Below are positions 9,417 to 41,786 of a DNA stretch of 56,402 nucleotides, in pieces. Position 1 is the first letter of the stretch; each line of letters opens with the position of its first letter. The DNA is from a virus. Its lineage: Duplodnaviria > Caudoviricetes. The DNA is taken from positions 1 through 56,402 of IMG/VR virus record IMGVR_UViG_3300042882_000312; one strand, 5' to 3'. The notes beneath the pieces were generated by a model. That model was not told the origin of the DNA. It did not search any database and was given only the letters and a program-made list of their open reading frames with translations. Made by a program: the position numbers and the translations under genes.

Positions 9417-9422
9417 AAGGAA

Positions 9423-9455: not shown

Positions 9456-9495
9456 GAGGGTCACGAGCACTTTGAAGGCAAGTGCTTGATTTTTA

Positions 9496-15600: not shown

Positions 15601-18281
15601 GGCAGGTTGCCTTCTCGCAGCAGATTGACCACCCGCTCGAGCGCCTTCGCGTCGTCTGCTGGCTTGGACGGCATCTCGTCCATGTCAGAGACTTGGGGCG
15701 GCAGTGAGGGTTTACCCTTACCTTGAGCGGCTTGTTGGATGCCCTGGCTCGCGAAGCTGGCCATCATGTCGCGCACCTTCTCGAACTGCGCGATCTCCTT
15801 GCCGATCTGCTGGCGGCTGCTTTCGGCGTTGGCGCGGAAGCTGGAGATGATGGTGTCCATCGCTTGCAGGATGCGGTCCAGCAGGGATGGGTTGCGCTGG
15901 CCGAGCTGCTGCCAGAACTTCTTGTCCGTGAACATCGTGCCCATGACGTCGGCAGCGATCTCGCTGTCGGTCTTGTTGGCCTGGCCCTTGCCCTCGTAGA
16001 ACTGCTTGTAGCGAGCCTGCGCTGCGCTGCTCAGGTAGGACTTGATCTCGAGCGCGAGCTGCTGCGCCTGGATGGGGAAGCGGCGCTCCAAGTCATGGAA
16101 CACTTCGTGGCCCAGCACGAACAGGCTGGCGTTGTCGGCTGCGGTCAGGTTCAGCAGCACGGTGCCACGGCCGTTTGAGTTGGCCATGTAGCGACCCGAC
16201 TTCTTGCGGATCGCGGGGTTCTTGCCGGTGTAGTTGTAGGCGACGACGTTGACGCCGAACAGGTTGCCGATGCGGTTGAAGTAGGTCGGTGCCTTGGTCT
16301 GCTGGAAGTTCTCCAGAGGCTCGCCGAACTCGACAGACATCGTCTTCGACAGGTTCTCGAACGTGCCCTCGCGGCCGGTGACCACGCTCCTTGGCGCTTC
16401 GCTGTTCAGGATTTCGCTGGCCTCTTGCGCCGTGAACCCGATCTCGAGCATCTCCTTGGTGGCGTTGTTGATCGCCGACTGACGCACCGCTGGGTTGGTC
16501 AAGCCGTTGATCTCTGAGCCGCGGCGAGCGAACTCAGCCTCGTAGCCGCCACGGTTCTTGTCGGTCAAGGGAACCACAGTGCCGTCAGGCGTGGTCATCT
16601 TGCTGAGGTCGACCGTGGGGCGATCGGCATCGCTCGCGGCTTGCTCGAGGCCGGAGCCTGTCTTACGCACACCCAGGCCTTGGGCCAAGGCGCTTGCCTC
16701 GAACTGGTCGGCCGGGTCCAGCTCCTCGCGACTCTCATCGGCGACGGGGTTGGTCTGCACCTCAGCGGCGGGGGCTGGGGCGGCAGGCTTGCGGACCTGC
16801 ATGTTGGCAGCAGCCTCGTTGGCTTTGATCTGGTCGGCTTCCTGCTCGGTCTGAGACGCGTAGTCGGCGCTCTCCCACATCTCGTCCCAAGTCTGGAACA
16901 GGCCTTCCTTGGGGGATGGCACCTTGTAGGTTCCAGCAGGCGGCTTGCCGTTGGCGTACATGTCCATCGACGACTGGAGGTCGGCCATGAAAGCCTGCGC
17001 CGTGTCGTTGGCCAGCTCGCGACGGGTGTCTTCCATCAGCTTGGCGTCAGCCAGAGCTTCTTGCACCTGGTCACCAACCTCGGAACGGGCAATGGCGCGG
17101 CTGATGAGCTCACGCTCCTCGTCGGTCTTGGCGTCCTGAGACATCACAGCCAGCAAGGCAGGCTTGGCCTGGAGGGTTTGGTTCACCTCCATCCAGCTCA
17201 TGGGTGGCAGCTCGGTGCCAGCCATGCGGTCGTCCGGTGCGTCACCCGAGGGTTTACCCTGAGATGGGGGCTTGTTGATGATGTCGCCGCCGACATCACC
17301 AGTGCCGCTCTCGGCTGCGTTGCCTCGGTAGGTGATGCCCTTGACGATGCCGCCAGACAGGCCACCGATCAGAGCTTCCTCTGACACGCCCTTGCCGGTG
17401 GGCTCATAGCCCATCACGTTGGTCAGCGCCTTCTGGCTACCTTCTTGACCACCTTCGGCCAGGACAGACTTGCCTGCCTGGGCGATGCGGCCACCCTTGT
17501 CGGCGAAGAAGCCGAGCTTGTTGGTGATGAAGGTCAGCGGCAGGTTGTAGGCGATCGCCTTATAGCCCTGACGCTCAGCCACGGTCTCGTTGCCGGTGTT
17601 CTTGAGTGCGCCCTCGAAGGCTTCTTGTCCAATCGAGGGGGCTTCCATTGCTGCGGCAGCGCCAGCGCCAACGATCCGGGCCAGGCCTGCGCCAGCACCC
17701 AGGGCACCAGCGCCAGCACCGACAGCCAAACCGCCAGCGATCATGGGCAGCGTAGAGGCCACGCCACCGACAACCTTCTGGAGCAGGTCTTGGTCTTCAG
17801 GGGTGAGAGCCGCAGCATCGACCTGAGCCTTCTGGCCCAGCTCCTCGATCGTCTTGATGCCGGTCTGACGGCCGACGTACTCAGCCGTTGCGCCAACCAT
17901 GTTGGCCAGGCCAGCAGCAGCGGAGTCAAACGTCTTCATCCCGTAGCCACGGGACTTGTCGTCGGTGCCCAGCTCTGCGCGGCGGGCGGTGATCTCAGCC
18001 TGCTTGGCCTTCTCGTCAGCCTTTACGCGCTCGATGCCGGTGGCGTCGATCTCGTTCGGGTTCGCGGTGTTCGTGCCGAACAAGCGAGTGATGGCGCTGT
18101 CCACCTTGTCGAAGGTGGTCTCAGGCTTCTTGGCCGGGGTGACCATTTCCTGGACTTCCTGCCTTGCCGCGTCATCGGGCTTGTAGAACAGGTTGTCCAG
18201 GTTGACACCAGCGCCAGGCCCCTTGAGGCCGCGTGTCGGCGGTGGATTGTCGAACAGCTTAGAGAGGTCCACCGACGACAT
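9672..18281 (-). CDS. Giant internal virion/ejection protein, large polyvalent protein with LPD38-like C-terminus
   Basis: 2869 aa at the end of the structural operon; Gly/Ala-rich hydrophobic N-terminal segments; LGHEVFH and FHEVQGHYG motifs; C-terminal ITVNF.RG..FLFFNPAVQG..IPIPYG. Confidence 0.8.
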   Translation of the reverse strand: MSSVDLSKLFDNPPPTRGLKGPGAGVNLDNLFYKPDDAARQEVQEMVTPAKKPETTFDKVDSAITRLFGTNTANPNEIDATGIERVKADEKAKQAEITARRAELGTDDKSRGYGMKTFDSAAAGLANMVGATAEYVGRQTGIKTIEELGQKAQVDAAALTPEDQDLLQKVVGGVASTLPMIAGGLAVGAGAGALGAGAGLARIVGAGAAAAMEAPSIGQEAFEGALKNTGNETVAERQGYKAIAYNLPLTFITNKLGFFADKGGRIAQAGKSVLAEGGQEGSQKALTNVMGYEPTGKGVSEEALIGGLSGGIVKGITYRGNAAESGTGDVGGDIINKPPSQGKPSGDAPDDRMAGTELPPMSWMEVNQTLQAKPALLAVMSQDAKTDEERELISRAIARSEVGDQVQEALADAKLMEDTRRELANDTAQAFMADLQSSMDMYANGKPPAGTYKVPSPKEGLFQTWDEMWESADYASQTEQEADQIKANEAAANMQVRKPAAPAPAAEVQTNPVADESREELDPADQFEASALAQGLGVRKTGSGLEQAASDADRPTVDLSKMTTPDGTVVPLTDKNRGGYEAEFARRGSEINGLTNPAVRQSAINNATKEMLEIGFTAQEASEILNSEAPRSVVTGREGTFENLSKTMSVEFGEPLENFQQTKAPTYFNRIGNLFGVNVVAYNYTGKNPAIRKKSGRYMANSNGRGTVLLNLTAADNASLFVLGHEVFHDLERRFPIQAQQLALEIKSYLSSAAQARYKQFYEGKGQANKTDSEIAADVMGTMFTDKKFWQQLGQRNPSLLDRILQAMDTIISSFRANAESSRQQIGKEIAQFEKVRDMMASFASQGIQQAAQGKGKPSLPPQVSDMDEMPSKPADDAKALERVVNLLREGNLPAAARTFKEAGLYAKGFGSFTELQRMATQPAQTAAPAPQKAAVAPTPAPAAKAAPVPADRQQTVTTDDGRTVRVDERKRYGDYVNRSGQLVTNPSAVQVARTDETPVTDDQEGMTFVSAPKTKGKPESRTEQTTQPRGQLRLSFGPRPSTDTPSMTRLRERMDGIIKGASSIKFFQDTIVGLEQQIADIESKIKALDKIEVDGKTFTAINDDDEAPGLWGIYDMNAYDRFADGFVADKPSSRQELLAARRLLTEELTKVRENSISAKARLFKQSMSRVADRLMTAARSAISGGMPEADARKVFNDYYSAISFRETRAVEEAERIELPVADAQSDMFDGLRVAMGFVSDYRNKLLSASDLNGYIDQGLRDGDFSFQDVTAAFRSFRLDIPRGVLDVSSQLAVRKPLAKHLEEAGHSTATRMEWLTSMDKVMSVNPGSRARFTAEELALHENVFAKRGELRSRRKVTEQTVAADNADDAFPALLFNNYTLADAVKDKTLSKWLGDAREAWMQDVAFALRSRPDLSGEILTGLADDRAAFDSWVQQKKDAIAKEAVILAKVPAFAEIRNMDYAEQVLTSVPGTTPADIERLYATVANSELNELPSVLDAVAKVRSLMTSGIDMETGEIFESQAAAEAAAAEYIDSVYMNAMMVEPPRSNIGAKFMPDEGFGMTVDMAGDRDRGLAEQTYETDQSLEELQNAGLVTEADVEGMASLTAPVDEDADIETETEGSQGELAAERRERSVRPVDVPSSLLGGEQYRFRKGFYQGNLVPAVVAEHLGKITAKWAAAPHIHVVPNLQSLPADLREKVMAKLGDNMYAKGLYLNGEAFVFTDHAESLADAEFTLFHEVQGHYGMRAFMGADFDAYLERLYKTSPDVRRAADARMAEESMGRLEAVDEVLSDMQASGKNSGVFQGYIGKVIAGLRKIGMERVANWMASKGEFEVAYLLRGAKQAVRRGDRPVQGTPDDLRLAATRTPYELFSAKGGKTVAYARYNPVLDRWSVFTATGDDMRKGFNTAIEADYDKVVASMRKLGRIERRTRSGVYIDNKIPSDLAKIPDFRILAEDVNFTSKEGLKTAWNLVKRNATIWYQNEYTPVFEVVNHLERSGKINEAYDVRPDLEGLYERRTGAKLEKYRKFFEKPLMKLVEQFGKEGGDTTLAEAFPGLKLKDARLGNLSLLDAYLGARHAAERNAQIAKVNPNQQDGGSGIFTADGDAILNAMSNQPYANTLAEMTAVLKDISNVKLEEMYESGMIGTDELKARSQYDYYVNLSGVNENIDQFDNPVILAGGPKFGTRKDRRAMGRGDAASDILIRTLQSFEAAVIHAEKNKVKQKVLAMFEINYDPDFVVVNKLATVRKLDENGQVTEATDERYIQNRDVMVVHVKGKPITMEFKQKGPGSFAEAINGMVWPPEATNAFQRFSGRANQIMGQMLTTWNPAWTAVNYTRDLQNLYFNAVTEGRITREMAAQMVKLQPQAIKAAFHIATDGKRGHSANQDVLDAYNEMRDAGGATSFLNLRSLENQVADLERLMNPAKPGSFKDVVSKMADFVESINIPMEMAPRIAAFKVMRDNGYSAVEAARFAGDITVNFNMRGSSKFMRNMFLFFNPAVQGTNKMYRLAKENPKTMGKIALGMASAGFIANIIARALGGEDDDGIDKLDKVPVFKRATSIVLWPDMPGMAIPIPYGWNVFFAAGNFMADTLWAGSQSPSTTIKRIAGTAFESFSPMGGAMLDASSTGVGVLKAVTPTVLSPLLDLVLNENRFGAPIAKEASMFGGGKRADSHMNFDSASPISTAVFRGLNAITGGDKVNPGVIDVNPGAFDYLVGGYLPGIAAETYKFASWSARKAQGYDTKDAALPIVDRLTAKVPEGYNFGMLRRAETFIKTKVDDYTINPGNRAEIIKEYPSLGVAKAIITAADYQVGSIRKVRNELESANIPQERKVELYNRSREAEKQVVANAVKRILQTNPQMREVLLAND

Positions 18282-23658: not shown

Positions 23659-24270
23659 TTATCCGTGGGAGGCCGACAAAACCTGCATGGCTTCAGCGAT
23701 GTGCTTCTTGCGGTCGTCGAGGCCAATCAGCCCGCCGTTGATCTTCTTGGTCAGGCCAGCCCAATCGCCAGCTTCAGCCAGGCGGTTGCAGTCGTGGGTG
23801 GACCAGAACCAGCCAGCGGTCATCGCGGCGTACTTGGGCGTGGCCACGAGCTCAGGCTCCTTGGTGAAGTCGACGCCACAGGACTTGCTCGCGTGGAAGT
23901 AGTTCGCGTGCCCCGTGAGCTGGATGCAGCCCCGGCCGCGGAAGCGGTAGCCATCCCCTGACGCCTCGTCACGGTTGCCCATGCGGCTGGCGTAGACCTT
24001 GTTGGCGATCTTCTTGGGGTTGCGGGCGTACTCGAGGGCGTAGTCCAGGCTGGGGAAACGCTTGGGCCAGAGCTTGGACAGCGTCTCGGCCCGGTAGTTC
24101 AGGTTCTCCTCGAGCACGCGGAAGTTGCCGCACTCGTGGCTGCACTGCCCGATGAACGCCGCTTGCTGGCGCAAGGTCGAGATGCCAAAGCGCTCGAACG
24201 TCTCATTGAGGGCTTCAACCCACTCAGGCCCAATCTTCAGCTTGGCGAGCTGTTCAGCGGTTACTGCCAT
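23659..24270 (-). CDS. Endolysin, glycoside hydrolase family 19
   Basis: FIGQCSHECG, ENLNY, FRGRGCIQLTG, INGG. Confidence 0.93.
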   Translation of the reverse strand: MAVTAEQLAKLKIGPEWVEALNETFERFGISTLRQQAAFIGQCSHECGNFRVLEENLNYRAETLSKLWPKRFPSLDYALEYARNPKKIANKVYASRMGNRDEASGDGYRFRGRGCIQLTGHANYFHASKSCGVDFTKEPELVATPKYAAMTAGWFWSTHDCNRLAEAGDWAGLTKKINGGLIGLDDRKKHIAEAMQVLSASHG

Positions 24271-24757
24271 TGATCTGCTCCCTTACTGTGTTGTAGGCGT
24301 CGATGCACGAGTTGAGTTGGTTGATTGCCCGGTCGCCGTCTGCTGCGATTTGGGCGATGAGGCGGAGGGTTTCTCGCTCGGCATCAGAAGCTGGGTCAGC
24401 CTCTCGGTCAGGTTCGGCTCGCGCTTCTTGGCGATCTCCGGTGCCAGCGGCGGGACTTGCGGGGGCTTGTACGCAACTTGGGGCGGGGAGGCGCACCCGG
24501 CCAGAGCGGATAGCGCGATCAAGAGCAGACTGCTTTTCGTCAAGGGCATTGTTGGCCTCCTGTAGCTTGGTGGTGTTGGCGTTGAGCTGCTCGGCCAGGC
24601 GCTGTTCCGTCTGGCGAGCCTCTTCGTTCTTTACGGCGATCTCGGCCTGCATCTCTGCATCACGCTTTCCCCAGCCGCTGCTGAAGCCGTAGCGGTAGAT
24701 GCCGAAGATGACGAGCAGGGTGATCAGGACGGCGATACCCAGGCGCTGGATGCTCAT
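24254..24757 (-). CDS. Rz-like i-spanin
   Basis: N-terminal TM, coiled coil, ADGDRAINQLNSC..Y. Confidence 0.85.
   Translation of the reverse strand: MSIQRLGIAVLITLLVIFGIYRYGFSSGWGKRDAEMQAEIAVKNEEARQTEQRLAEQLNANTTKLQEANNALDEKQSALDRAIRSGRVRLPAPSCVQAPASPAAGTGDRQEARAEPDREADPASDAERETLRLIAQIAADGDRAINQLNSCIDAYNTVREQINGSNR
24283..24549 (-). CDS. Rz1-like o-spanin embedded in Rz
   Basis: Alternate frame inside Rz; lipobox LSALAGC; Pro-rich. Confidence 0.8.
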   Translation of the reverse strand: MPLTKSSLLLIALSALAGCASPPQVAYKPPQVPPLAPEIAKKREPNLTERLTQLLMPSEKPSASSPKSQQTATGQSTNSTRASTPTTQ

Positions 24758-25260
24758 GACTCACTCCTTGCTGCGGCACGCTCGTGCGCGATCTCCTCCG
24801 CCTCTGGCGGGATGTAGTCGGCAGGGGTGGTGGGCGGTGGAGGTGGAACCCAGCTCTCATCGAGGGCGGCGTTCTGAAAGCCCATCCAGTTCCAGTCAGA
24901 GGCTGCTGGATGGGCCGGAGGCTTTGGGGGCGTGTCTCCCGCAGCCGTGGGCGCTGGCGCTGGTGGTGTCGGTGTTGGCGCGATGGCCTTGGCGATTGCG
25001 CCTGTGGCACGCTTGGACATGACGCCACCGATGCCGCCAACGATCAGCAGCACGATGTCGTTGAGCATCTTGGTGTAGGCCATGTCGATGGGAGCCATCG
25101 ACTTGATCGGCTGCACAACGAACGTGACCGAGTACAGCATGGCCACGACGATGAAGCACAGGATCAGGGTGACTGTGATGACAACGAAGCCCCAGATGCG
25201 GACCTCGATGTCGTCAGCGGTTAGGTGCTGCTTCGGGTGTGGTTTGAGAAGGTTGAGCAT
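24754..25260 (-). CDS. Two-TM membrane protein with Pro-rich tail (holin candidate)
   Basis: TMs IWGFVVITVTLILCFIVVAMLYSV and IVLLIVGGIGGVM. Confidence 0.75.
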   Translation of the reverse strand: MLNLLKPHPKQHLTADDIEVRIWGFVVITVTLILCFIVVAMLYSVTFVVQPIKSMAPIDMAYTKMLNDIVLLIVGGIGGVMSKRATGAIAKAIAPTPTPPAPAPTAAGDTPPKPPAHPAASDWNWMGFQNAALDESWVPPPPPTTPADYIPPEAEEIAHERAAARSES

Positions 25261-25441
25261 TGATCTGGTCTTTCAGGACGGGGGCAACTAAGTACTCGGG
25301 GCACATCTGCGTGAACAGGCATTTGGGTTTCTGGCACTCAGGTTTGGCGAAGTTGTCCGGATTCTGGCAGGGGTAGCGGTAGCGATCTTCGCAACCAGCA
25401 AGGGCCAGCGCCGCAAGGAGTAAGGCGACGTACCGCATCAC
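25214..25441 (-). CDS. Small Cys-rich lipoprotein
   Basis: Lipobox LALAGC then EDRYRYPCQ..ECQKPKC..MCP. Confidence 0.8.
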   Translation of the reverse strand: MMRYVALLLAALALAGCEDRYRYPCQNPDNFAKPECQKPKCLFTQMCPEYLVAPVLKDQINAQPSQTTPEAAPNR

Positions 25442-25944
25442 TTGCCAGACAGCGGGTTCGACGTGGCTCGCTTGAGCACGTTCATCTCGGCACGCAGCGC
25501 TGCCGCGGTGCTATCGAGGTCTTGCTTGAGGGCGTTCAGCCGGGTCTGTACTTCACGGCCCTGGCTCTCGATCGAGGACTTCACCTCGCGGCCGGTGGCG
25601 GCAGCTTCAGCCGATGCGCCCTGGGCCACAGCCTTTGTCTCGCGGGCCAAGGCAATCGCGTCAGACGACTTCTCGGCAATGCGGACGGCCTGCTCAGCGA
25701 TCGTGAGCTGACGCTCCTTGAGCGCCTTGACCTCGATCTCGAACGCCTGAATCCTCTCGCGGAACTCGGTGTCGTCGTAGGGCTTGAACTTGTCTACGGC
25801 CTCGATGGTCTTTTCCATCTTGCCCCAGAACTTAATCCCCGAATACGCCGCTCCCCCGATAATTGGCAGGAAGGTCACGATCAAGCCAAGAATCATTTGA
25901 CTGGATAAGTTCAAGGAGTAGGTCTTGTTGGCGTCTGTACTCAT
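25438..25944 (-). CDS. Single-TM coiled-coil protein
   Basis: N-terminal TM, long heptad helix, C-terminal NPL. Confidence 0.8.
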   Translation of the reverse strand: MSTDANKTYSLNLSSQMILGLIVTFLPIIGGAAYSGIKFWGKMEKTIEAVDKFKPYDDTEFRERIQAFEIEVKALKERQLTIAEQAVRIAEKSSDAIALARETKAVAQGASAEAAATGREVKSSIESQGREVQTRLNALKQDLDSTAAALRAEMNVLKRATSNPLSGK

Positions 25945-26962
25945 TCGGTAGCTCCTGTTTCAATGTGATTTGTTCAACGATATTTGCCTGCTTCGGCATA
26001 GCGCCGATCAGCGTCAGCCTCTGGACCAGTGCCGCTGCTCTCGCACCAGGTCCGGCAGGAGTGGACGGAGCAGAGCTTCCCGTTGACGGGGCAGCGGAAC
26101 CTGCCGAGGAAGTTTGGGGTGGGGCTGCGGACTGGCTCGCGTCCTGCGACGATTCCGATGTCGTCGTCGGCACAGGAGTCGTCGGCGCAATTGCAGCGGC
26201 GCTCGGTGTGACGAGGACAGGCGTGGCCATCACTGGCGATGCTGGGTTCAGGGGGCTCACCGGGCTCACGGGCGACAGCACGTTGGTCGCGTTGGTCATC
26301 GACTTGACGCACGAGTTTGATGAAGTCGTCCACTCGCCCCACAAGAGTTGCCCATAAGGATTGGGGCAAGCGCTGGTCTTGATCTGCGTGATGGCACCCA
26401 CATACCCGGCAGGGCATGACTGCGTCTGCGTCTGCGTGCTTGGTTGGCATGTAGGTGGGTTCCATTTGCATGTGTCCTGCGTCAGTTGCCATGCGCCCCA
26501 CACAGGCTGACCGTATGGGTCGGGGCATGCGCTTGTGCGAGTGAACGTCTTGCCGCCACTCTGGTTCGCGAGACATGGCTCTGTGCGTGACTCGCTGCTT
26601 GGTTTGCATGTTGGCGGGAGAGGCGTGCAGGCTTCAGAGACCTTGAACCACCCACTGTCAACGGCAGACCCGCCGATGCAGTTGCTCTCGCGCTTCCAGG
26701 TTTCAGTGCCTGAGAAGTTGACGGGGCACGCTCGTTGCTCAGTGACTGCGGAGTAGGTGCAGGCAGGTGCTGGAGGCACGTAGTTCGCGCAGTAGGATTG
26801 CTGCCACGCGATGTTGTACGCACCAGGAACGCAGGCCCAGCAGGAGGCGTTGGCGTAGCAATTACCCGTTGTTGGGTTGAGCTGGGTTGTGCAGTAGCAG
26901 CTTTGAGCCAGGGCATTACTTGTCCCCAGCAGGAGTGACAGCCAGATCAGGAACCTTGCCAT
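25832..26962 (-). CDS. Secreted Cys-rich repeat protein
   Basis: Signal peptide; three ~50-aa repeats with 4 Cys each; Pro/Ser/Thr-rich linker. Confidence 0.8.
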   Translation of the reverse strand: MARFLIWLSLLLGTSNALAQSCYCTTQLNPTTGNCYANASCWACVPGAYNIAWQQSYCANYVPPAPACTYSAVTEQRACPVNFSGTETWKRESNCIGGSAVDSGWFKVSEACTPLPPTCKPSSESRTEPCLANQSGGKTFTRTSACPDPYGQPVWGAWQLTQDTCKWNPPTCQPSTQTQTQSCPAGYVGAITQIKTSACPNPYGQLLWGEWTTSSNSCVKSMTNATNVLSPVSPVSPLNPASPVMATPVLVTPSAAAIAPTTPVPTTTSESSQDASQSAAPPQTSSAGSAAPSTGSSAPSTPAGPGARAAALVQRLTLIGAMPKQANIVEQITLKQELPNEYRRQQDLLLELIQSNDSWLDRDLPANYRGSGVFGD

Positions 26963-27365
26963 AGAGCTTCTTGAACCTTTCAGGGTGCAGCTTCACCCAA
27001 GCCTCACGGGCCGAGTCGCCGATCGAGCCGCCGATCGGGCAGGGACTGCCAGACATTTCCATTGCTTCCCAGACGCGGATGTCGGCACACAGGATCGCGA
27101 CAGCGCCGACCTTGAGCCCCTGGTTGGAAAGCTCTCTGGCCAGCTTGATGCGTTCGCAGTTCGCGTCGGTGACAGTTGCGCCTCCAGCGATGCCGATCAC
27201 CGTGGAGCTGATTGCTCCCGAGACAGGAACAGCGCACACGTCGCTGCCCATCGCGGTGACGGAAGGAGCCATCGCCGTAGGTGGCGGCTGGCCCTTGTAG
27301 TTGATCGTGGTGTCCTGAGCGAAGACCGCCGCAGGGACCAGTAAAGCGAAAAGAAAGTACTTCAT
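26916..27365 (-). CDS. Secreted Cys-containing hypothetical protein
   Basis: Signal peptide (AVFA/QD); PPPTAMAPS..SDVC..DANCERIKLAREL..LC..GSPCP. Confidence 0.8.
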   Translation of the reverse strand: MKYFLFALLVPAAVFAQDTTINYKGQPPPTAMAPSVTAMGSDVCAVPVSGAISSTVIGIAGGATVTDANCERIKLARELSNQGLKVGAVAILCADIRVWEAMEMSGSPCPIGGSIGDSAREAWVKLHPERFKKLYGKVPDLAVTPAGDK

Positions 27366-27369
27366 ACAA

Positions 27370-27822
27370 CTACCTGACGATTGCTATCCCGACGACGATT
27401 AGGACGACGAGCACGACTACGGCAACAGCAAACGCCATCCATTGCGCAAACTCTTCGAGCTCCTTCTTGCGCATCTCGACAGCCCGCCTGGCGGCTTCTT
27501 TGGCCTCACGACGACCGCGAGCAGCCTCAGCCTGGAACCTGATCCAGTCGTCCCACATGCCTGGTCGGCCTGCGTAGACCATCGACTCGCGCAGATGCTC
27601 TTCTTGCTGGCGCAGTTGCTCGAGAGCCATGAACTCCTCGATGTCAGACCTGCCCTCGAGGGGTCTGCCTCCAGCCTTCCGGGTGGCCCGCTCTTGAATC
27701 TTTGCCTTGCTGTCGAAATACTCAACAAGCTTTCTTCCGGCGCTCACCAACTCGCCACCGTTCGCGATGGTCGCCTTGATTACTGCGAAGGCGGCATTTG
27801 CTGCGGCGAGTTCTGCAATCAT
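27370..27822 (-). CDS. Membrane-anchored helical protein
   Basis: MIAELAAANAAFAVIK amphipathic N-terminus, charged helix, C-terminal TM. Confidence 0.75.
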   Translation of the reverse strand: MIAELAAANAAFAVIKATIANGGELVSAGRKLVEYFDSKAKIQERATRKAGGRPLEGRSDIEEFMALEQLRQQEEHLRESMVYAGRPGMWDDWIRFQAEAARGRREAKEAARRAVEMRKKELEEFAQWMAFAVAVVVLVVLIVVGIAIVR

Positions 27823-27824
27823 GC

Positions 27825-28064
27825 TTAGGTCCTCAAGTTGTCCTTGAAGGACTGCCACGCGATGGCTGCGGCGGTGCATGTCGCACCAATGAAAAGAATC
27901 GGCCTGGCGATCTTGCCGAACCAATCAAGCACAAGGAACGCGCCCTGAGCTGCATCAAACGCCTTGACGACGTCAGCGGTGTTCTTCTCGATGCTGTCCA
28001 CCTTCAGCTCCACGGCCAAGAGGCGGTCGTAAATTGCTCGGTGTGATACGTCGACGGATTCCAT
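27825..28064 (-). CDS. Small membrane protein (holin/antiholin candidate)
   Basis: Short coiled coil plus one TM. Confidence 0.65.
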   Translation of the reverse strand: MESVDVSHRAIYDRLLAVELKVDSIEKNTADVVKAFDAAQGAFLVLDWFGKIARPILFIGATCTAAAIAWQSFKDNLRT

Positions 28065-28132: not shown

Positions 28133-28864
28133 TCAGTTGGTGCGAATGAACTTGATGAACACGGCACCCATATCCAGGTGCCACCATCTTGTTCGGAACG
28201 ATGCTCGACCAGGGTGGTCGTGATGCGTCTTGTGCTGCCATTCGCCGCCAGTCGGGAAGATGAACTCGAGCAGCGGCAAGTCACGAGCACCGCCTTCGCG
28301 GCGATGACTGAGAAGCTGATGGACTACGCCGAACGCTTGAGCAGTCCCCATCGGCATCAGGTAGCCGAAGATGAAGACTGTGGGCGAGATGGCGAACAGG
28401 GCTGCGGCAAAGGCAAACCAGAGCGCAAACCAGTAGCGATGCACGAAGTCCAAAGTCGGGTCGCCAACGACGCTCTTAAAGCGCCCCATCACCATCGGCA
28501 CACTGCGGAACTGCTTGAACAGGACGTACCGCCAGTTCACCTCATGCGGGTCCAGGTCAGTGTCTGAGTGGACATGGTGCGTGGTGTGAGCGGTGGTCCA
28601 AGCGTAGGGAGACCCATAGAGCATGGTCACGCTGTAGTACGCCATGAACTTGTGCCAGAACGGCGTTGTCTTGAAGGCTCCATGCGTGAAGTAGCGATGC
28701 AGGCCAGCGGACACGATCATCGTGTTGAAGTGGTGGACGATGGGCCACAGCAGCAGCCACCAGGCACTCACCTCACCAGAGGCTACCAACCAAAGGCCGA
28801 CAGCGATACCGGCAAGGCCGATCAGGTAGCCGAATCCAACATGCCAACCAGCGTGTTTAATCAC
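28133..28864 (-). CDS. Membrane fatty acid desaturase (delta-9-like)
   Basis: His boxes HRYFTH, HTTHH, HKTHH; D.DPH; several TMs; WWHLD; GTG start with GGAG RBS. Confidence 0.9.
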   Translation of the reverse strand: MIKHAGWHVGFGYLIGLAGIAVGLWLVASGEVSAWWLLLWPIVHHFNTMIVSAGLHRYFTHGAFKTTPFWHKFMAYYSVTMLYGSPYAWTTAHTTHHVHSDTDLDPHEVNWRYVLFKQFRSVPMVMGRFKSVVGDPTLDFVHRYWFALWFAFAAALFAISPTVFIFGYLMPMGTAQAFGVVHQLLSHRREGGARDLPLLEFIFPTGGEWQHKTHHDHPGRASFRTRWWHLDMGAVFIKFIRTN

Positions 28865-29402
28865 GGTCCGCTCCAATCAAAAAACCATAGCAGTCACCGT
28901 CAGCAACCAGTGCGCTGCCGTCATGAACAAATGCGCTGCCGTTGAGGTGTGCGCCAAGCTGACCTGCGCACAAGAGAACGCGAGCTCCGGCAGCAACTGA
29001 AATTGCTTGCCCGCTTGGGATTCGCAGAATCTCGACTTGCGGGAGAGCGCCCCGATTTGCGTGCCAGTTGAAGCACCAGAACTCAAATTCATTCAGCGCT
29101 GTGTGCGTCATCACACCGGCTGGCGTATCTGGCCGATCACCAGAAAACATACCTGGCACCCGTTTGTCAAAGACGGTGCCGTCCTCATGGGTGAAGCTGG
29201 CCTCGCCGCGCACGTACAGCGTCATGTTTGGCGCAGAGCTGCGGCTAACAGCCTGTGTTGCCCGCGTAACCAATTTTCCGCCGGGGGCGAATACATGGCG
29301 ATGCACCTTCCAGCCGAATGCAAGCATCTGCTGCACAAGGGGCTGTTGTGGGCCGACTGGCTTGTCAGCCCTCCAGTCGCGTCGAGTTGGTACTGTCGTC
29401 AT
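28857..29402 (-). CDS. Hypothetical beta-rich protein coupled to the desaturase
   Basis: Overlaps desaturase start; short beta-strand pattern (cupin-like is a guess). Confidence 0.7.
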   Translation of the reverse strand: MTTVPTRRDWRADKPVGPQQPLVQQMLAFGWKVHRHVFAPGGKLVTRATQAVSRSSAPNMTLYVRGEASFTHEDGTVFDKRVPGMFSGDRPDTPAGVMTHTALNEFEFWCFNWHANRGALPQVEILRIPSGQAISVAAGARVLLCAGQLGAHLNGSAFVHDGSALVADGDCYGFLIGADRD

Positions 29403-30248: not shown

Positions 30249-31346
30249 TCAGACCCCCAACTTCTGCTTCAGGGCGACCAGTTCTCGAGCAAGCGCTACG
30301 CACGACGCGAGCGCCGCGTTGCCGTAAGCGACTGAGAGGTTGCCGTCAGAGTCAGTGTGGACCGCGTGCGGAAGTGCTTCGTCGCGCAAGCTTGCAGCGC
30401 CAACGCCCACCTGAGTCTTGCCGGTGTCCTTACGGTCGAATGCACCCATCTTCACTCTGGCTAAGCGCTCAACGAAGTCGTCTGGCAGGTCGCGCCAGTT
30501 CTCTTTCAGACGCTCGTCCGAGTAGGCTGTGATGTCGCCAGCGGCTGTCGTATTGCCTGAGCCGTCGACAGAAAGGAGCACGGTTGATGCGCCGCCGCCA
30601 CCGTTTGTAATGGCAAGGCGGGTGACGCCGTCTGTGTTCAAGTACCAAGCACGCGCCGAGTTGCCCGGGATGTGCATCTCGTACATGGCCAGCGAGCTGT
30701 TGGCGATCACGATTCGCGGTGACGAAAGCGAAAGCAGGCCGCTGAACACCTTGTCGCCGCTAATCGTCTGGGTGCCGATCGTGTACACGCCATTGGTCAC
30801 GGTGGCGGCATTCCCGGCGAGCGATCCGTTGATCGGCAGATTGAATGTAGCCGACCCAAGGAAGGTCGATGTCGAGGAGAACGAAACACCTCCGCCGAAG
30901 CTGACAGCCTCAGAGAATGATGTGGCGGTCGCGAATAAGGTGCTTCCGTAGAACGCGGTCGAACCAGCAAACGAATTGGTCCCGGTAAACGCGTTGTTCT
31001 TTGAGACGATGTCGACGATGGAGTTGATGTCGGCCGCGGTGAGGCGCAGGCCTACTACAGCACCGGCAGAGAAGTCTCTTGCCGTTGTTCCCTCTTGCCC
31101 CCGAATCACATTGCCAAGCACGCCAGAGCCAGACACTCGAGTCCTGACATAGACGATCTCAATGTTGCCCAGCGAGTCCTGCAAGACGGCCTTGAACCAG
31201 TTGTTCAGAGATGGCACAGCACCCGTCCCCACGTTGGCGACAGGGAACGCGTCAGCCATCACAGCGTCGATGGTGAGGCTGGTCGATGACGAGGTAACAG
31301 CCGCCACCAGAAATGCGCGTGCGTTGTTTGAAAATAGCTGAGCCAT
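30249..31346 (-). CDS. Tail fibre 2 with C-terminal S74 intramolecular chaperone
   Basis: EIVYV..RGQEGTTARDF N-terminal module; GDITAYSDERLKENW. Confidence 0.85.
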   Translation of the reverse strand: MAQLFSNNARAFLVAAVTSSSTSLTIDAVMADAFPVANVGTGAVPSLNNWFKAVLQDSLGNIEIVYVRTRVSGSGVLGNVIRGQEGTTARDFSAGAVVGLRLTAADINSIVDIVSKNNAFTGTNSFAGSTAFYGSTLFATATSFSEAVSFGGGVSFSSTSTFLGSATFNLPINGSLAGNAATVTNGVYTIGTQTISGDKVFSGLLSLSSPRIVIANSSLAMYEMHIPGNSARAWYLNTDGVTRLAITNGGGGASTVLLSVDGSGNTTAAGDITAYSDERLKENWRDLPDDFVERLARVKMGAFDRKDTGKTQVGVGAASLRDEALPHAVHTDSDGNLSVAYGNAALASCVALARELVALKQKLGV

Positions 31347-31389
31347 CTAGCTCTCCTTCAATGCTTCAGAATTATCATTGGTGGCCCGC

Positions 31390-33102
31390 TCAAGACTGCA
31401 TTGCTGCGAGCTTTGCTTCGAGGGCGACGACGCGCTTTGCGAGCTCGATCGCGGACACCAGGGCCGCGTTGCCGTAGGTCAATGTCAGAGTCTTGTCGTC
31501 ATCCGCGCCGACAGTAACGACCTCCGGTAGCAGCTCTCTCCAGTCCTGAGCCGAGGAACCGGCCTGGCGATCGCCTGTGTCAATCCTGGTATACGTGCCA
31601 CCCTTGATGCCAGCCAAGCGCTCGACAAAATCAGCAGGCAATGCGGCCCAGTCTTTTTTCAAGCGCTCGTCTGAGTAAGCGGAGACGTTTCCTGCGGCAA
31701 CCATGTCGCCGTTCGGGGCTGAGTACCAAGACCATGCCCCACGGCTCCATCCGCCAAGACCGAAGTAGCCGTCGGCCCTCAGATGCATGTGTATTGCGTA
31801 GGTGCCTGTGCAATGGAATCCGATAGCGGCCACGTTTGCATCGCCCGTGCCACCGTTGTTCCTGAACTCTGCGCTTACCACGCCGCCAGACGTGGTCGAG
31901 CCCGCAACTGGAGCGCTTGTCCATTTGGCGTTTGCGCTGTTGCAGTTTGTTGCCGTAGCAGCGTTGCCGCTCGAGGTGATGTACCCGCTTGGGTTGGTGC
32001 TGTTGTACGGCGTGAAGCCAAGCGCACCCGTCACGTCACCAGAAGACAGGGTCACTGCGCCCGTACGGGTGTTGAAGCTACTCACGCCACCACCGGACCC
32101 GTTAGATGCGGAAGTGATTCGACCCTTTGAGTCAACCGTAAGGCTGACGTTGGTGTAGCTGCCAGCAGTCACGCCGCTGGCGGCAAGCGTGAGCGCGGTG
32201 CTCGAGCCAGTTGAACCCGACCCAGTCACGTCGCCCGTGAACGCCAGCGACCCAGACGGAATGCTCACTGCGACATTGCTAACCGAAGTGATGCGCCCCT
32301 TTGCGTCAACGGCGAGCTGGGGGATGTTTGTTGCATCGCCGTAGGTGCCAGCAGTGACGCCGCTGTTTGCGAGCGTCAGTGAAATGATGGCGTTGCTTGA
32401 GCCGTCAAAACTAGCGGAGCCAGAGGCGTCACCACTTAGCGAGATCAGCCTAGAAGTCGCCAGGGCGGATGCTGTAGAGGCGTTCCCGAGCAGAGACGCA
32501 GTGATTGCGCCAGCGCTGAAGTTCCCGCTGCCATCGCGAAGAACAACAGTGTTGCCGACGTTTGAGCTGGTGCGTACGGCTGCTGGCTCAGTGGCCTCTA
32601 CAAGAACCGCTCCATTATTTGCGTGAGAACGCAAGACATAAGCGATGGCTTGATATGTGCCAGAGCTTGGCTGGGTCGCGCTCAATCCACCGGATGCATT
32701 TGGGTAAACGACCGACCCTTCTGCAAACGAAGATGTGTCAAAGCCCTCGAGCACGCCGGTATTGATAATTGCGCCGAAGTGGCCTGATGCGAGGGTGTCG
32801 TGCGAAAGTCCAATAGCAACATCCAGCGAAGATGATGTTGGGGCGACCTCAAACGCGTTCGCGCCAGAGTTGTAGCCAACAAATTTGACGGGCTGGCCTT
32901 TAGAAATAGCGGCACTTGCCTTGACCTTGAAGTGGATGTGATCCGCGCCAATCGTGTTGGTGATTGAATCAATCGTTTTGTTGGTTAGCGTGCGAACATC
33001 AGCGGGCTCAATCTTGTCGCCGTTAAGGTTCGTGAAGTTGGCATCGACCTCCGCGTTGGTCAGCGGAGACCCCTTGCCAGCGCGGGTGACGATGGTTGCC
33101 AT
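31390..33102 (-). CDS. Tail fibre 1 with C-terminal S74 intramolecular chaperone
   Basis: KGSPLTNAEVDANF; repeated SGVTAGTY..VDAKGRIT; GNVSAYSDERLKKDW. Confidence 0.88.
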   Translation of the reverse strand: MATIVTRAGKGSPLTNAEVDANFTNLNGDKIEPADVRTLTNKTIDSITNTIGADHIHFKVKASAAISKGQPVKFVGYNSGANAFEVAPTSSSLDVAIGLSHDTLASGHFGAIINTGVLEGFDTSSFAEGSVVYPNASGGLSATQPSSGTYQAIAYVLRSHANNGAVLVEATEPAAVRTSSNVGNTVVLRDGSGNFSAGAITASLLGNASTASALATSRLISLSGDASGSASFDGSSNAIISLTLANSGVTAGTYGDATNIPQLAVDAKGRITSVSNVAVSIPSGSLAFTGDVTGSGSTGSSTALTLAASGVTAGSYTNVSLTVDSKGRITSASNGSGGGVSSFNTRTGAVTLSSGDVTGALGFTPYNSTNPSGYITSSGNAATATNCNSANAKWTSAPVAGSTTSGGVVSAEFRNNGGTGDANVAAIGFHCTGTYAIHMHLRADGYFGLGGWSRGAWSWYSAPNGDMVAAGNVSAYSDERLKKDWAALPADFVERLAGIKGGTYTRIDTGDRQAGSSAQDWRELLPEVVTVGADDDKTLTLTYGNAALVSAIELAKRVVALEAKLAAMQS

Positions 33103-36458: not shown

Positions 36459-37442
36459 TTACTTGGACACGTAGCCGTGGACCAAGGCTTCAGGCTTGGT
36501 GGTCTTGAAGCCGTACACGTTCAGGCCGCGCATGATGTTGCCGAACGTGGTCTGAGCACGCAGGCTCTCGACGTTGGTGATCTGCGAAGCGAACGAGATG
36601 GCGTCACGAGTGCCAGCCATGATGTTCCAGGCCGACTTGTCGGCTGCGCCACCAGTGCCGCCAGCAGCAGCGTCCGAGCCCAGGTCGGTGACCTTGGACA
36701 GGTTGTTGCTGATGTACACGGTGAAGCGGTCGATCATGCCGATCTTGCCGTTGCGCAGCGGGGTCACGCTGTCACCGGTCAAGTAGGCCTGCTTCAAGTC
36801 AGAGCGCTTGATCATGCTTGCCATCCAGGCGGGCAACACCATCCAGCGGCCGTCTTCAGGCACGTTCTGCTCGTCCAGCACCTGGCCCATGTCCAGGATC
36901 ATGTCCAGGACGTTGTCCTTGGTGACTGCGCGAGGAGCACCCACGGCACCCAGGTTGATGTCGCCAGAGATGGCACCAGCGGTGGCACCCTTGTTGGCGG
37001 CAGCAGCGTCTGCGTACACAGAGCCCAGGACGTCGCCGTCGATGGCGATCTTCATCTGCTGACTTGCGTCGTTGGTGAAGATGTCCATCAGCTTGACGTC
37101 GGCCTGCACTTCATCCACGTCGTCCAGAACGACTTGGAAGTACTTGCCCTTGTCGATGTTCAGTTCCAGCGGAGTGCTGGTAGGAACTTGCGACGTCAGG
37201 TTCATACCCTTCGTGTAGTTGCTGATGTTGATGGTTGGGATGGTGCGGATGTGGACCTTGTCGCCTTGGCCCTTGATCTCGCCTTCCCAATCGTTGTTGG
37301 TGATCTCGCCCAACACGGTGGACTTGTAGAACTTGACCTGGAGCTTGCCCGACCAGACTTCAGGGATGAAGCCGGAAGCGCCGCTGTAGGAGTCAACACC
37401 GGAACCTGCGCCGTAACGGTCGCCAGAAACTGCAACTGACAT
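36459..37442 (-). CDS. Major capsid protein
   Basis: FIPEVWSGKL..EGEIKGQGDKVHI, LDEQNVPEDGRW, RGLNVYG; follows scaffold. Confidence 0.92.
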   Translation of the reverse strand: MSVAVSGDRYGAGSGVDSYSGASGFIPEVWSGKLQVKFYKSTVLGEITNNDWEGEIKGQGDKVHIRTIPTINISNYTKGMNLTSQVPTSTPLELNIDKGKYFQVVLDDVDEVQADVKLMDIFTNDASQQMKIAIDGDVLGSVYADAAAANKGATAGAISGDINLGAVGAPRAVTKDNVLDMILDMGQVLDEQNVPEDGRWMVLPAWMASMIKRSDLKQAYLTGDSVTPLRNGKIGMIDRFTVYISNNLSKVTDLGSDAAAGGTGGAADKSAWNIMAGTRDAISFASQITNVESLRAQTTFGNIMRGLNVYGFKTTKPEALVHGYVSK

Positions 37443-39767: not shown

Positions 39768-41786
39768 TTATTGCATGAGGTTGGCTTCGCCGCCTGCGGG
39801 ATTGCCAGCAGCGTCTAGTGTCATTGGTGCTTTGGCCTGCTGTTGCTGGCCACCCATCATCTGGGCCTGCTGCATCATTTGCTCGGCCATCTGCTTTTGC
39901 TGACGGAACTCGAGCTGCTCGGTGGTGGGCACCAGCTTGTCGGTGTCCATCTGGAGGCTCTTGGCCACTTCGCGCAGCAGGTAAGAGCGACCCATCGGGC
40001 CGATGATCTGGAGGTCGACAGGGTTGGCCGTCGCCTGCAAGAACTCGTTGCGGCGGACCTGGAGCTGCTCCTTGGCAACCAGACCCATTGCGCCACGGGC
40101 GATGACCTTGAAGTCGCCTTTGCACGCAGCGTCAGCGTCGTAGATCATGTTGTGGATGTACAGGCGCTCGACCAGTGCAGCGACCACGGTGTCGATCGAA
40201 CCGATCGCCGCCTTGATACCCTTGGCTGCGTTGTCCATGAGCATGCTCAGGCCAGACGCCGTGCGACCCACGCCACCGCCACCTGTGTTGCCGTAGACGT
40301 AGTTCGGGATGCCCGTGACTTCGTCGGCCTGGCGGCTGAAGTATTGGTAGACGCTCATCAGCGCCTCGGCGTTCATGTTCGGCTGGAAGAACCGGACGGC
40401 AGGCTGGCCACCGCCAGTGCGGTCAGACGTGGTCTGCCAAATCTTCCAAGGGAACATCGAGGTGACGTCCTCGCCGTCAGGCAGGCGGTCGACGTGGACC
40501 TCGGCCTGCGGGCCAGAGGCGATGCCCATGTTGTTGGCCAGCGATCGAGCCGCGGCGTTGCACAGCACCTGGGTGTCACGCATCTGCTCGGGCAGGGCGG
40601 AGCCCCAGAAGCTGCCAGGGATCGGAACCCACTGAGCGATCTCGTAGGGACGACGGCCGAGTGGGTCGGGGTTCAGGATCGCCTTGATGACGAACGGACC
40701 GATCACCCAGATGTTTGCCTCGTACTCCTTGTACGGGTCGAGCTTCTTGCCCTTGTAGCCCCACTGGTTGAGCATGCGGCCGGAGACCGAACCCCAATAC
40801 TCGACGGCCTCGATCACGTCCTTGGTGTACAGGCGTGAGTGAGGCTTGCCTTCCAGGCGATCGCGCTCTTGGTCGCCCATGAGCCACTGGCGGAAACCCG
40901 TGTCGCCGAAGCGCTCGAGCACCTGGTCGATGTCGTCGTTGCTGTAGCCGGGGGTGCCCTTCATGGACTCGAGGGCTGCGCGGCTCAAGCGGTGGCGCTC
41001 GATGAAGTAGCCGTCGTGGATCGTGCTCGAGCTGGGTGATGGGAAGGCGTCGTGCGGGGAGACGCGCTCAACCTTGCGCACGAAGTCGGTCAGGATGATC
41101 GGCTTGTACCCAGGCCCCCACTTCATCACCTTCTTGCGGCGCACCACCGGACCCTTGAGGATGGCGGTGGGGTAGGTGACGAAGTCGTCGATGAACTCGC
41201 GGAACGCAGGATCAAAGCCGCCCTGGTTGAGCTGGTCCTCGATCTTGTTCTCCATGCGGAAAGCCTTCTGCTTGGCCTCCTCGCGCAGCTTGTCCATGAT
41301 CTCGTCCTGGACCTGCTCCATGCGGACGCGGAAAGCTTCGGGGTGAACCTGGCCACCAGCGGCCACGAACTCCTGCATTTCGAGGCGAACCAGGTCCACG
41401 ATGCCAGCCGAAATCTCGGGAGGCAGCTCGGGCTCGCGGGCAGGGTCCAGGTTGAAGGCTCGGCGCCCGCCGCTGACCATCACGTCGATGATCCAGTTCG
41501 CCGCTGCCCGGGACTTCACGTCCGTGATGCGCATGTAGATGTCAGAGCCGCCGGTCTTGGCGATGTCCATCGCCTTGTCCGGGTCGTAGACGCCGCGCCG
41601 CTGACGTTCGCACTGGAGCAAACGCTCAGTGATCTCGGTCTTGGCAAACTTGGCCCGACTCCAGGCGTCATTGACGTGAGCGGCAAGCTCTGTGCCGATC
41701 GTGTCGATGAGCTGATTCTTCTCGTCAACGAGGACTTCAACCTCGACGGGTGGCTGCACGGCAGCCATTGCGAGTCCCATTTTCAT
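39768..41786 (-). CDS. Portal protein
   Basis: ~670 aa after terminase; PGSFWG, ADEVTGIP, RTASGLSMLM; Gln-rich tail. Confidence 0.9.
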   Translation of the reverse strand: MKMGLAMAAVQPPVEVEVLVDEKNQLIDTIGTELAAHVNDAWSRAKFAKTEITERLLQCERQRRGVYDPDKAMDIAKTGGSDIYMRITDVKSRAAANWIIDVMVSGGRRAFNLDPAREPELPPEISAGIVDLVRLEMQEFVAAGGQVHPEAFRVRMEQVQDEIMDKLREEAKQKAFRMENKIEDQLNQGGFDPAFREFIDDFVTYPTAILKGPVVRRKKVMKWGPGYKPIILTDFVRKVERVSPHDAFPSPSSSTIHDGYFIERHRLSRAALESMKGTPGYSNDDIDQVLERFGDTGFRQWLMGDQERDRLEGKPHSRLYTKDVIEAVEYWGSVSGRMLNQWGYKGKKLDPYKEYEANIWVIGPFVIKAILNPDPLGRRPYEIAQWVPIPGSFWGSALPEQMRDTQVLCNAAARSLANNMGIASGPQAEVHVDRLPDGEDVTSMFPWKIWQTTSDRTGGGQPAVRFFQPNMNAEALMSVYQYFSRQADEVTGIPNYVYGNTGGGGVGRTASGLSMLMDNAAKGIKAAIGSIDTVVAALVERLYIHNMIYDADAACKGDFKVIARGAMGLVAKEQLQVRRNEFLQATANPVDLQIIGPMGRSYLLREVAKSLQMDTDKLVPTTEQLEFRQQKQMAEQMMQQAQMMGGQQQQAKAPMTLDAAGNPAGGEANLMQ

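Follow-up and report, generated by a model that had tools for sequence, protein, structure and literature searches.

A predicted g3-g4-g5 triad of envelope proteins in the lysis cassettes of mostly aquatic phages

Described lysis systems and the locus under study

Gram-negative phage lysis is taught as a process of three steps that are carried out by holin, endolysin and spanin, respectively. The subject of this work is a run of seven consecutive, tightly packed genes, g1 to g7 (24754-28064), in the IMG/VR virus record IMGVR_UViG_3300042882_000312, whose whole assembly, a single contig of 56,402 bp with a podovirus-like phage genome, is referred to here as the window. Comparative analysis led us to predict that three of these genes, g3 (149 aa, 26916-27365), g4 (376 aa, 25832-26962) and g5 (168 aa, 25438-25944), represent a conserved component of phage lysis cassettes, hereafter the triad. 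Gene coordinates of the run were taken from the open reading frame (ORF) list and lie on the minus strand.

Only one alternative to spanins has been described, namely the disruptin gp28 of phage phiKT, a cationic peptide that disrupts the outer membrane without a spanin, and about 15% of phages are reported to lack a recognisable spanin (bioRxiv 10.1101/515445). Lysis cassettes can moreover need extra small membrane proteins, as exemplified by Lcc6 of the Shewanella phage LambdaSo, a 65-aa protein acting at holin level. The proteins g1, g2 and the short form of g7 found in relatives could likewise be accessory membrane proteins of the lysis cassette.

Like the lambda Rz/Rz1 spanins, the triad is encoded in the lysis cassette, includes in g5 an N-terminally anchored protein with a long helical domain (periplasmic in the reading preferred below), seemingly needs a partner that reaches the outer membrane, and is mixed and matched with different holins and endolysins. 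Unlike these spanins, it has three components, its constant partners g3 and g4 are predicted to be Sec-exported non-lipoproteins, the lipoprotein g6 can be lacking (it is present in 10 of 28 loci), no sequence relation of the triad to Rz/Rz1 was found, and a true Rz/Rz1 pair coexists with it in the window. The triad resembles phiKT gp28 in being a possible spanin alternative at the last lysis step in phages without recognisable spanins; gp28, however, is a single small cationic peptide, whereas the triad would comprise three proteins, which bring export signals, a membrane anchor and disulfides. It belongs neither to the two-component spanins, from which it differs in sequence family and in not being inherited as a pair, nor to the disruptin route, as it shares nothing with a cationic peptide. 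The RcGTA-type cassette, which consists of a holin of the GTA_holin_3TM family (GTA, gene transfer agent; TM, transmembrane segment) and an endolysin, is what most often adjoins the triad in relatives; unlike these, the window has no such holin, and the slot is held by g7 and Rz/Rz1.

Conservation of the triad and its association with lysis genes

The original prediction had regarded the products of all seven genes as a single complex and the cassette as a candidate for an undescribed system, inserted ahead of the lysis genes, and had proposed gene-neighbourhood analysis as a check. We searched the window proteins by tblastn in 86 loci, drawn from an IMG/VR scan with g3 (100 relatives confirmed, 80 loci kept), a scan with g4 (6 loci) and two GenBank records; the resulting counts are raw, the loci reaching at most 8 kb to each side, with many of them incomplete and some duplicated. 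The triad proteins were detected almost throughout (g3 in 85 loci, g4 in 80 and g5 in 73), with the order g3-g4-g5 identical in every locus where tblastn detects them. The other proteins were recovered from a smaller part of the sample, that is, g7 from 27 loci, the endolysin from 22, g6 from 20, Rz from 13, g2 from eight and g1 from six, and the full seven-gene set is confined to three near-identical IMG/VR contigs (loci L003/L011, L009 and L010). The myovirus MW202462.1 carries a small C-terminally anchored protein, a 221-aa g2-like protein, a 45-aa membrane protein, g6, a long g7, Rz/Rz1 and a GH19 endolysin, and is without g3-g4-g5. Since occurrence is this unequal and modules are found apart, the seven genes are not one co-inherited unit. 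The sequence comparisons indicate instead a composite of three separately inherited modules, namely g1/g2, g3-g4-g5, and g6/g7 with Rz/Rz1 and the GH19 endolysin. The idea of an undescribed system thus holds for the triad, which is conserved and constant, and not for the block as a whole.

The gene neighbourhood of the triad was analysed in a reduced set of 35 non-redundant loci, 28 of which extend at least 2.5 kb beyond g5; ORFs downstream of g5 were clustered, and cluster representatives were compared with Pfam and PHROGs. In 27 of the 28 loci an endolysin is encoded no more than 3 kb away and belongs to GH19 in ten (one by tblastn only), to Phage_lysozyme in eight, to Peptidase_M15 in seven and to GH108 in two; L013 is the one exception, with no endolysin found within 3 kb. 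A GTA-type holin-like gene stands between g5 and the endolysin in 22 of the 28 loci. Fourteen of these 22 genes form a cluster with weak matches to a holin PHROG and sub-threshold matches to GTA_holin_3TM, and eight belong to phrog_6637, which is the PHROG of the holin of Pelagimyophage Mosig. Five loci are recorded as having no GTA-type holin, L013 and four with a long g7 and an embedded Rz/Rz1 as in the window. A g7-like gene with two TM segments is present in 16 of the 28 loci, and g6 follows g5 in ten. In distant relatives, g3-g4-g5 is directly followed by a holin-like gene and an endolysin, so that the block is better regarded as part of the lysis cassette than as an insertion ahead of it. 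Taken together, the gene neighbourhoods point to the triad as a lysis-cassette component that goes freely with endolysins of four families and with holins of several types, as would be expected of an independent third lysis step. As a separate observation, L013 (4721-7870) carries g3-g4-g5 and a short g7, and where its close relative L005 encodes a holin-like protein and a GH19 endolysin, both of these are missing; the lysis genes of L013 may have been deleted or moved.

The triad is found well beyond the relatives of the window. A tblastn search detected the g3 core domain in 11 GenBank phage records, including six Pelagibacter and two Roseobacter phages. The Pelagibacter podovirus HTVC023P encodes a g3-like gp45, a 461-aa gp46 with a signal-like N-terminus and an acidic linker, and an N-terminally anchored helical gp48 ending in N-P-L, followed by an M15 endolysin. 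Pelagimyophage Mosig shows a protein matching Pfam GTA_holin_3TM (E 1.6e-5), a g3-like protein, a 611-aa exported protein and a g5-like protein, and then a C-terminally anchored DUF7201 protein. The Pelagibacter siphovirus HTVC202P has the triad as gp24-gp26 (7336-9674, L109). Roseobacter phage CRP-810 encodes a small N-terminally anchored gp54, a g3-like gp53, gp52 and a g5-like gp51. The latter protein (L088, 6255-6677) is annotated as 'lysozyme' in CRP-810, yet it matches 0 Pfam families and has the architecture and tail of g5.

Among the distant loci, 23 have a match to the g3 hidden Markov model (HMM), and the triad architecture is present in 17 of about 19 having enough downstream sequence (14 flagged automatically, L089 and L095 recognised by eye and L090 by HMM). 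This architecture consists of a g3-like protein, a middle protein of 338-810 aa, most with a signal-like N-terminus, and an N-terminally anchored helical protein ending in N-P-L. The g5 HMM has matches in nine loci, seven of them distant (E 1.8e-7 to 1.5e-3). The N-terminal domain of g4 is the most variable part of the triad, with Cys repeats in the window and an unrelated domain in pelagiphages. A search of the g3 profile against 1.84 billion cluster representatives (50% identity) returned 1746 matches at E<=1e-3, 518 at E<=1e-10 and 66 at E<=1e-30. In the protein atlas g3 falls into viral hypothetical clusters, its cluster being 98% viral, and no usable match was obtained there for g4. A scan of one genome per prokaryote species with the g3 profile gave only 18 loci, all of them on contigs of metagenome-assembled genomes (MAGs), mostly in bins of marine Alpha- and Gammaproteobacteria; for three of these bins, one of Bifidobacterium and two of archaea, the host is implausible and the contig probably mis-binned. 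Because of this restriction to a few MAG loci, g3 is a family of uncultured, mostly aquatic phages and not a common prophage gene of cultured bacteria. Judged from these comparisons the triad appears to be old and widespread, occurring in podo-, sipho- and myovirus types, which argues against a virion role. No description of it was found among the titles and abstracts covered by a literature search, with supplementary annotations being a possible place for one.

Spanin-type gene pairs were searched on the coding strand with strict and relaxed forms of a detector that reports an N-terminally anchored ORF with an overlapping or adjacent lipobox ORF. In the window the detector recovers g5/g6 and Rz/Rz1. 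Among the 28 loci it reports an Rz/Rz1-type pair in four and a g5/g6-type pair in nine, or ten if L028, recognised by tblastn and clustering, is counted. Neither type of pair was found by the strict and relaxed detectors in 18 of the 28 loci, the flanks of at most 8 kb leaving out pairs encoded elsewhere. In two complete genomes that carry the triad, namely MW202481.1 (41 kb) and HTVC202P (32 kb), neither a pair nor an ORF resembling a unimolecular spanin was found. Within the limits of the detector, triad-bearing phages thus appear strongly depleted in recognisable spanins versus the about 85% expected (bioRxiv 10.1101/515445).

Protein features and genome setting

Export signals and TM segments in the window were predicted from hydropathy windows and from heuristic A-x-A and lipobox sites. 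From these and the gene list it could be confirmed that each of the seven consecutive minus-strand genes has a signal peptide, a lipobox or a hydrophobic anchor, the segment of g1 being weak, and that all seven products are envelope-directed. Searches of Pfam, PHROGs and NCBIfam gave nothing above cut-off for g1 to g7 save PHROGs without an assigned function for g2, g3 and g7, so that none of the seven maps to a named family. The claim that the block runs into Rz/Rz1 and a GH19 endolysin was likewise borne out by the PHROG and Pfam matches of the latter and by overlaps of -4 nt (g7/Rz) and -17 nt (into the endolysin).

Both g3 and g4 start with signal-peptide-like regions with A-x-A sites. In g3, the signal peptide is followed by a short Thr/Asn-rich N-terminus and a domain with four Cys whose C-terminal half is helical. 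In an alignment with 26 relatives the N-terminus is variable yet hydrophobic, conservation starts directly after the A-x-A site, and the four Cys are invariant; a predicted signal also lies upstream of the core in 57 distant relatives. The mature exported proteins have even numbers of Cys, with four in g3, 18 in g4 and four in g6, which together with the signal peptides fits periplasmic proteins with disulfides. The AlphaFold2 model of g3 has a predicted local distance difference test (pLDDT) value of 71.7 overall and of about 90 for the helical half (residues 68-135). No significant resemblance was found for this fold in the PDB (best Foldseek E 1.3, best VIA-align Z 3.4); a profile search of the PDB had a best E of 0.15, and sequence searches of the PDB with g3 and g4 gave 0 matches at E<=10. 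The idea of a TonB box in the mature N-terminus of g3 was dropped, this stretch being Thr/Asn/Ser-rich only, with D/E-T among the first five residues in 11 of 57 relatives.

Longer g3 forms of 290-429 aa were obtained in 75 matches and show no informative Pfam fusion; three fused forms with unrelated domains look like gene-call chimeras. Pfam searches with distant g4-like proteins, long g3-like proteins and small membrane proteins also returned nothing above cut-off. In one clade (L057, 7872-8444; L082; L085) the g3 ORF has an N-terminal extension of about 45 aa, which resembles the small C-terminally anchored protein of cluster c6 that is encoded by a separate gene in L013, L021 and L049, where it stands upstream of g3, and in MW202462.1. 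This is an apparent in-frame fusion, with the TM segment of the c6-like protein acting as the g3 leader.

The g4 protein consists of a signal peptide, Cys-rich beta repeats (18 Cys, four in each repeat), a linker rich in Pro, Thr, Ser and Ala, and a C-terminal domain that is short and helical. In an alignment of 37 sequences the repeat number varies, the C-terminal region is conserved, and relatives keep a similar leader. AlphaFold2 modelled the repeats (residues 70-225) with a pLDDT of about 95, the disordered Pro/Thr linker (residues 241-307) with values below 50, and two C-terminal helices with low confidence. The confidently modelled repeats are elongated beta modules, whose top fold matches are to the G5-E rods of SasG/Aap and to CCP/sushi beads. 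The rods (4fun, 8deo) come first in Foldseek (E 0.16); VIA-align superposed 102 residues on SasG at Z 3.5 and matched the RpfB G5 domain at Z 3.2, with a best Z of 3.7 overall. All of these matches are non-significant; in contrast to SasG/Aap and CCP/sushi proteins, g4 has four Cys per repeat and no Pfam G5 match, and its scores (E 0.16, Z 3.5, E about 0.03) lie at noise level. A single unnamed look-alike in the viral structure library (H6BJ76, E 1.7e-7) was uninformative. A comparison of the Cys repeats with plasmid TraN was dropped for want of a Pfam match.

The g5 protein has no Cys and a single TM segment (residues 17-35, hydropathy 1.91), followed by a part that is helical judging by the alignment and by its weak matches to helical families; its description as a coiled coil derives from composition and such matches. 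Its conserved C-terminal tail ends in N-P-L, with R159, T161, N163 and L165 near-invariant in the alignments. Comparison of g5 with the Rz family of this phage gave an hhalign probability of 0.8%, and neither g5 nor g6 has an Rz-like Pfam or PHROG match at E<=0.1. A complex prediction that used row-matched alignments of g3 (17-149), the C-terminus of g4 (297-376) and g5 (40-168) returned a score of 0.00, which says nothing on binding either way. The last 113 nt of g4 (25832-25944) also encode, in another frame, the beginning of g5; close relatives share about 110 nt between the two genes in a similar manner (L010, 9254-9363), and only 4 nt overlap in the distant group, e.g. in L041.

Upstream of the triad, g1 (79 aa, 27825-28064) is helical in its N-terminal part and weakly hydrophobic in a C-terminal segment (hydropathy maximum 1.53, residues 52-70), and nothing in Pfam, PHROGs or NCBIfam matches it; in relatives its place is taken by other small proteins with a single span. 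The helical g2 (150 aa from an internal ATG, 27370-27822) ends in a C-terminal tail-anchor TM segment (mean hydropathy 3.51, residues 131-149) and matches phrog_32327 (E 7.6e-6), a PHROG with no function assigned. A g2 gene follows g5 in L028, and MW202462.1 encodes the 221-aa analogue. Both g1 and g2 are variable single-span membrane proteins, and from the tail-anchor topology their soluble parts are probably cytoplasmic. Cys residues are absent from g2 as from g5, and g1 and g7 have one each.

Downstream of the triad, g6 (25214-25441) encodes a small lipoprotein of 75 aa with the lipobox L-A-G-C (Cys17) and a Pro content of 12%; in an alignment of 12 sequences, C17 of the lipobox and C25, C36, C41 and C47 are invariant. 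The g6 start and the g5 stop share 4 nt, which is the layout of an o-spanin gene, a small lipoprotein gene that lies within its i-spanin gene, overlaps it or follows it directly. With its Cys knot and its occurrence without g5, g6 is not a typical o-spanin. The g7 protein (168 aa, 24754-25260) has two hydrophobic segments (2.94 and 1.48) and a Pro-rich C-terminal tail; the loop between the two TM segments is conserved among 16 aligned sequences, and ten more distant sequences are of 87-109 aa and without the tail. It matches phrog_25359 (E 1.8e-6), another PHROG with no assigned function, and no holin family of Pfam or NCBIfam, and is thus not in a described holin family. The layout of g7, with two TM segments and a gene stop overlapping the Rz start by 4 nt, is that of a class II holin. 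A GTA-type holin was not found in the window, where tblastn gave a best E of 0.045 and the HMMs of both holin clusters gave nothing at E<=10. Since g7 has two TM segments, stands directly before Rz and is accompanied by no other holin-type gene, it is most likely, on these sequence features, the best holin candidate of this phage. In L050 (9508-9828) and L047 the g7 slot holds a single-TM protein of 105-106 aa with an N-terminal match to Pfam EF-hand_5 (E 1.6e-6), i.e. a calcium-binding motif on a membrane protein of the lysis cassette.

The Rz-like i-spanin (167 aa, 24254-24757, minus strand) was found by the pair detector, has an N-terminal TM segment and matches the Rz-like spanin PHROG phrog_1327 (E 7.7e-13). 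Embedded in it in another frame is the Rz1-like o-spanin (88 aa, 24283-24549, minus strand), with the lipobox L-A-G-C, 15% Pro and weak family matches (Pfam O_Spanin_T7, E 0.0032, below cut-off; phrog_3198, E 2e-4). By the family match and the embedded lipoprotein gene, Rz/Rz1 of the window is a canonical two-component spanin. The endolysin (203 aa, 23659-24270, minus strand) matches Pfam Glyco_hydro_19 (E 7.2e-11) and the endolysin PHROG phrog_181 (E 1.4e-77), and no TM segment, signal or N-terminal hydrophobic segment was found in it.

From g1 to g7 the gaps between the genes are, in order downstream, +2, +4, -47, -113, -4 and -47 nt. No sigma-70-like promoter and no minus-strand terminator-like site was found inside the cassette, and the seven genes are probably co-transcribed. 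They are part of a long late block on the minus strand, which includes the terminase (41783-43243), the portal (39768-41792), the major capsid protein (36459-37442) and the tail-fibre genes (30249-33102). After the tail fibres the order is a desaturase-like gene, g1-g7, Rz/Rz1, the GH19 endolysin and an internal virion protein (phrog_511, E 3.9e-129), so that the lysis genes sit between tail genes and internal-virion genes; then come an acetyltransferase-like gene, a further two genes of virion type and the gene of a giant 2869-aa protein. The desaturase-like gene (28133-28876, minus strand), located between the tail-fibre genes and the lysis cassette, encodes a membrane protein of 247 aa with three His-box-like motifs and a partial match to the DesA-family fatty-acid desaturase of NCBIfam (E 1.9e-7, far below cut-off), no Pfam match, and one weak relative in L062 (24% identity). 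It may be an auxiliary lipid-modifying gene in the late operon. The giant ORF (9672-18281, minus strand) has LPD38, a large polyvalent-protein domain, as its sole Pfam match (residues 2548-2739, E 6.5e-24), and probably encodes a giant polyvalent protein that is ejected or associated with the virion. The early region encodes an Amidoligase_2-domain protein (50353-51711, plus strand; E 1.8e-9) and a Toprim plus DnaB-like primase-helicase (1594-3321, minus strand).

Possible roles of the triad at the host envelope

The explanation that we tentatively prefer, at somewhat below an even chance, is that the run 24754-28064 represents the upstream part of an extended modular lysis cassette and that the triad proteins form a complex that spans the periplasm and acts on the outer membrane in the last step of lysis. 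In such a cassette g1 and g2 might tune the holin, and g3, g4 and g5 would assemble into the complex, with g5 as its inner-membrane anchor, g4 providing the reach to a wall- or outer-membrane-proximal end, and g3 as a conserved adaptor. The g3 core and the g5 tail would be the best candidates for direct contact, because they are the most conserved pieces. The complex might act after holin and endolysin at the final outer-envelope step, analogous to a spanin and not dependent on a lipoprotein, and in the window it would coexist with the canonical Rz/Rz1 pair.

Several observations weigh against this explanation. With a canonical Rz/Rz1 already present in the window, a second outer-membrane device would be redundant. 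Homology ties none of the triad proteins to a function. The charges flanking the TM segment of g5 are ambiguous and do not fix its topology, and a cytoplasmic helical domain would break the model. In HTVC202P, the clearest non-adjacent case, the triad lies just before the terminase and about 19 kb from the M15 endolysin (gp53). An unannotated, lipoprotein-like ORF of 86 aa (L088, 4651-4911) between gp54 and gp53 of CRP-810 possibly forms a spanin pair with gp54. Moreover, the scarcity of spanins was estimated with a crude detector, which recovered two of four textbook regions in the strict form and three of four in the relaxed form (lambda, T7 and Mu, with P2 lysB/lysC missed) and in the latter form gave eight spurious pairs in the GC-rich window; spanins encoded farther off than the at most 8 kb covered per side would also escape it. 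Finally, a short gene of the g7 type co-occurs with a separate holin-like gene in 11 loci, which makes the holin role of g7 uncertain; g7 may be an accessory membrane factor.

The triad might alternatively be a lysis-timing device, that is, a periplasmic sensor or antiholin-like regulator that reports envelope or superinfection status to the holin via g5, with a logic comparable to lysis inhibition by RI/RIII of T4. Such a role would agree with the holin-like genes that adjoin the triad (22 of 28 loci), with its GTA-type holin neighbour in Mosig, with the extra small membrane proteins around the triad (g1, g2 and clusters c1, c6 and c12), and with the in-frame fusion of a c6-like protein to the g3 N-terminus in one clade; extra membrane factors at holin level occur in other phages, Lcc6 of LambdaSo being an example. 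A specific regulator, however, should co-vary with its holin, and the holin candidates found with the triad are of at least three kinds that are unrelated to one another (g7, the c1_173 type and the phrog_6637 type). Since the size of g4 (338-810 aa), its rod-like repeats and its long linkers would also be excessive for a sensor, we consider lysis timing unlikely. Protection of the infected cell or of the progeny, by masking or modifying receptors or the envelope late in infection so that superinfection is excluded or less progeny sticks to debris, seems distinctly unlikely. The variability of the g4 N-terminal domain would suit a host-specific binder, in podoviruses the block follows the tail-fibre genes, and in this phage the desaturase-like membrane enzyme is encoded just upstream. 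In Mosig, on the other hand, the triad is tied to holin and endolysin genes and not to tail fibres, and in HTVC202P it stands before the terminase, far from both tail and endolysin genes. The g3 core and the g5 tail are highly conserved across phages of very different hosts, as would be expected if the target were a conserved feature of the envelope rather than a receptor particular to a strain, and no match to known exclusion families was obtained in the libraries searched, which did not include PADLOC.

It is improbable that g5/g6 is a plain second two-component spanin with g3 and g4 as unrelated passengers. The N-terminal TM segment and long helical domain of g5, the small lipoprotein g6 with its 4-nt overlap, the report of this pair beside Rz/Rz1 by the detector and the presence of g6 after g5 in 10 of 28 loci would all suit a spanin pair. 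A pair should be co-inherited, however, and g5 occurs without g6 in 18 of the 28 loci and with g3 and g4 in all of them, whereas g6 occurs without g5, after the 45-aa protein, in MW202462.1. The lack of Rz-like family matches for g5 and g6 at E<=0.1, the hhalign result for g5 versus Rz, the Cys knot of g6 and its Pro content of only 12% point in the same direction. Hardly credible is the assembly of all seven proteins into one disulfide-bonded complex that spans both membranes as a single novel system ahead of the lysis genes, as originally proposed. The genes are indeed tightly packed and probably co-transcribed, and the full set is shared by three near-identical contigs; against this stand the sharply unequal occurrence across the 86 loci, from 85 for g3 down to six for g1, and the separate modules of MW202462.1. 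A disulfide-bonded assembly would moreover have to include g5 and g2 without any Cys, g1 and g7 with one each, and the soluble parts of g1 and g2, which are probably on the cytoplasmic side.

A farther-reaching proposal, which we regard as rather doubtful, is that g3-g4-g5 constitutes a new class of lipoprotein-independent, three-protein lysis machinery that breaches the outer envelope and replaces spanins in many aquatic phages. If true, this would explain how abundant spanin-lacking phages, including those of SAR11 and Roseobacter, complete lysis. The triad is testable in existing phage-host pairs, as cultured SAR11 and Roseobacter phages carry it. Should the triad instead regulate lysis or block superinfection, it would still be a widespread envelope system lacking a named family. 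If it acts in lysis, it adds a component to the textbook pathway and would provide a handle on progeny release by abundant marine phages.

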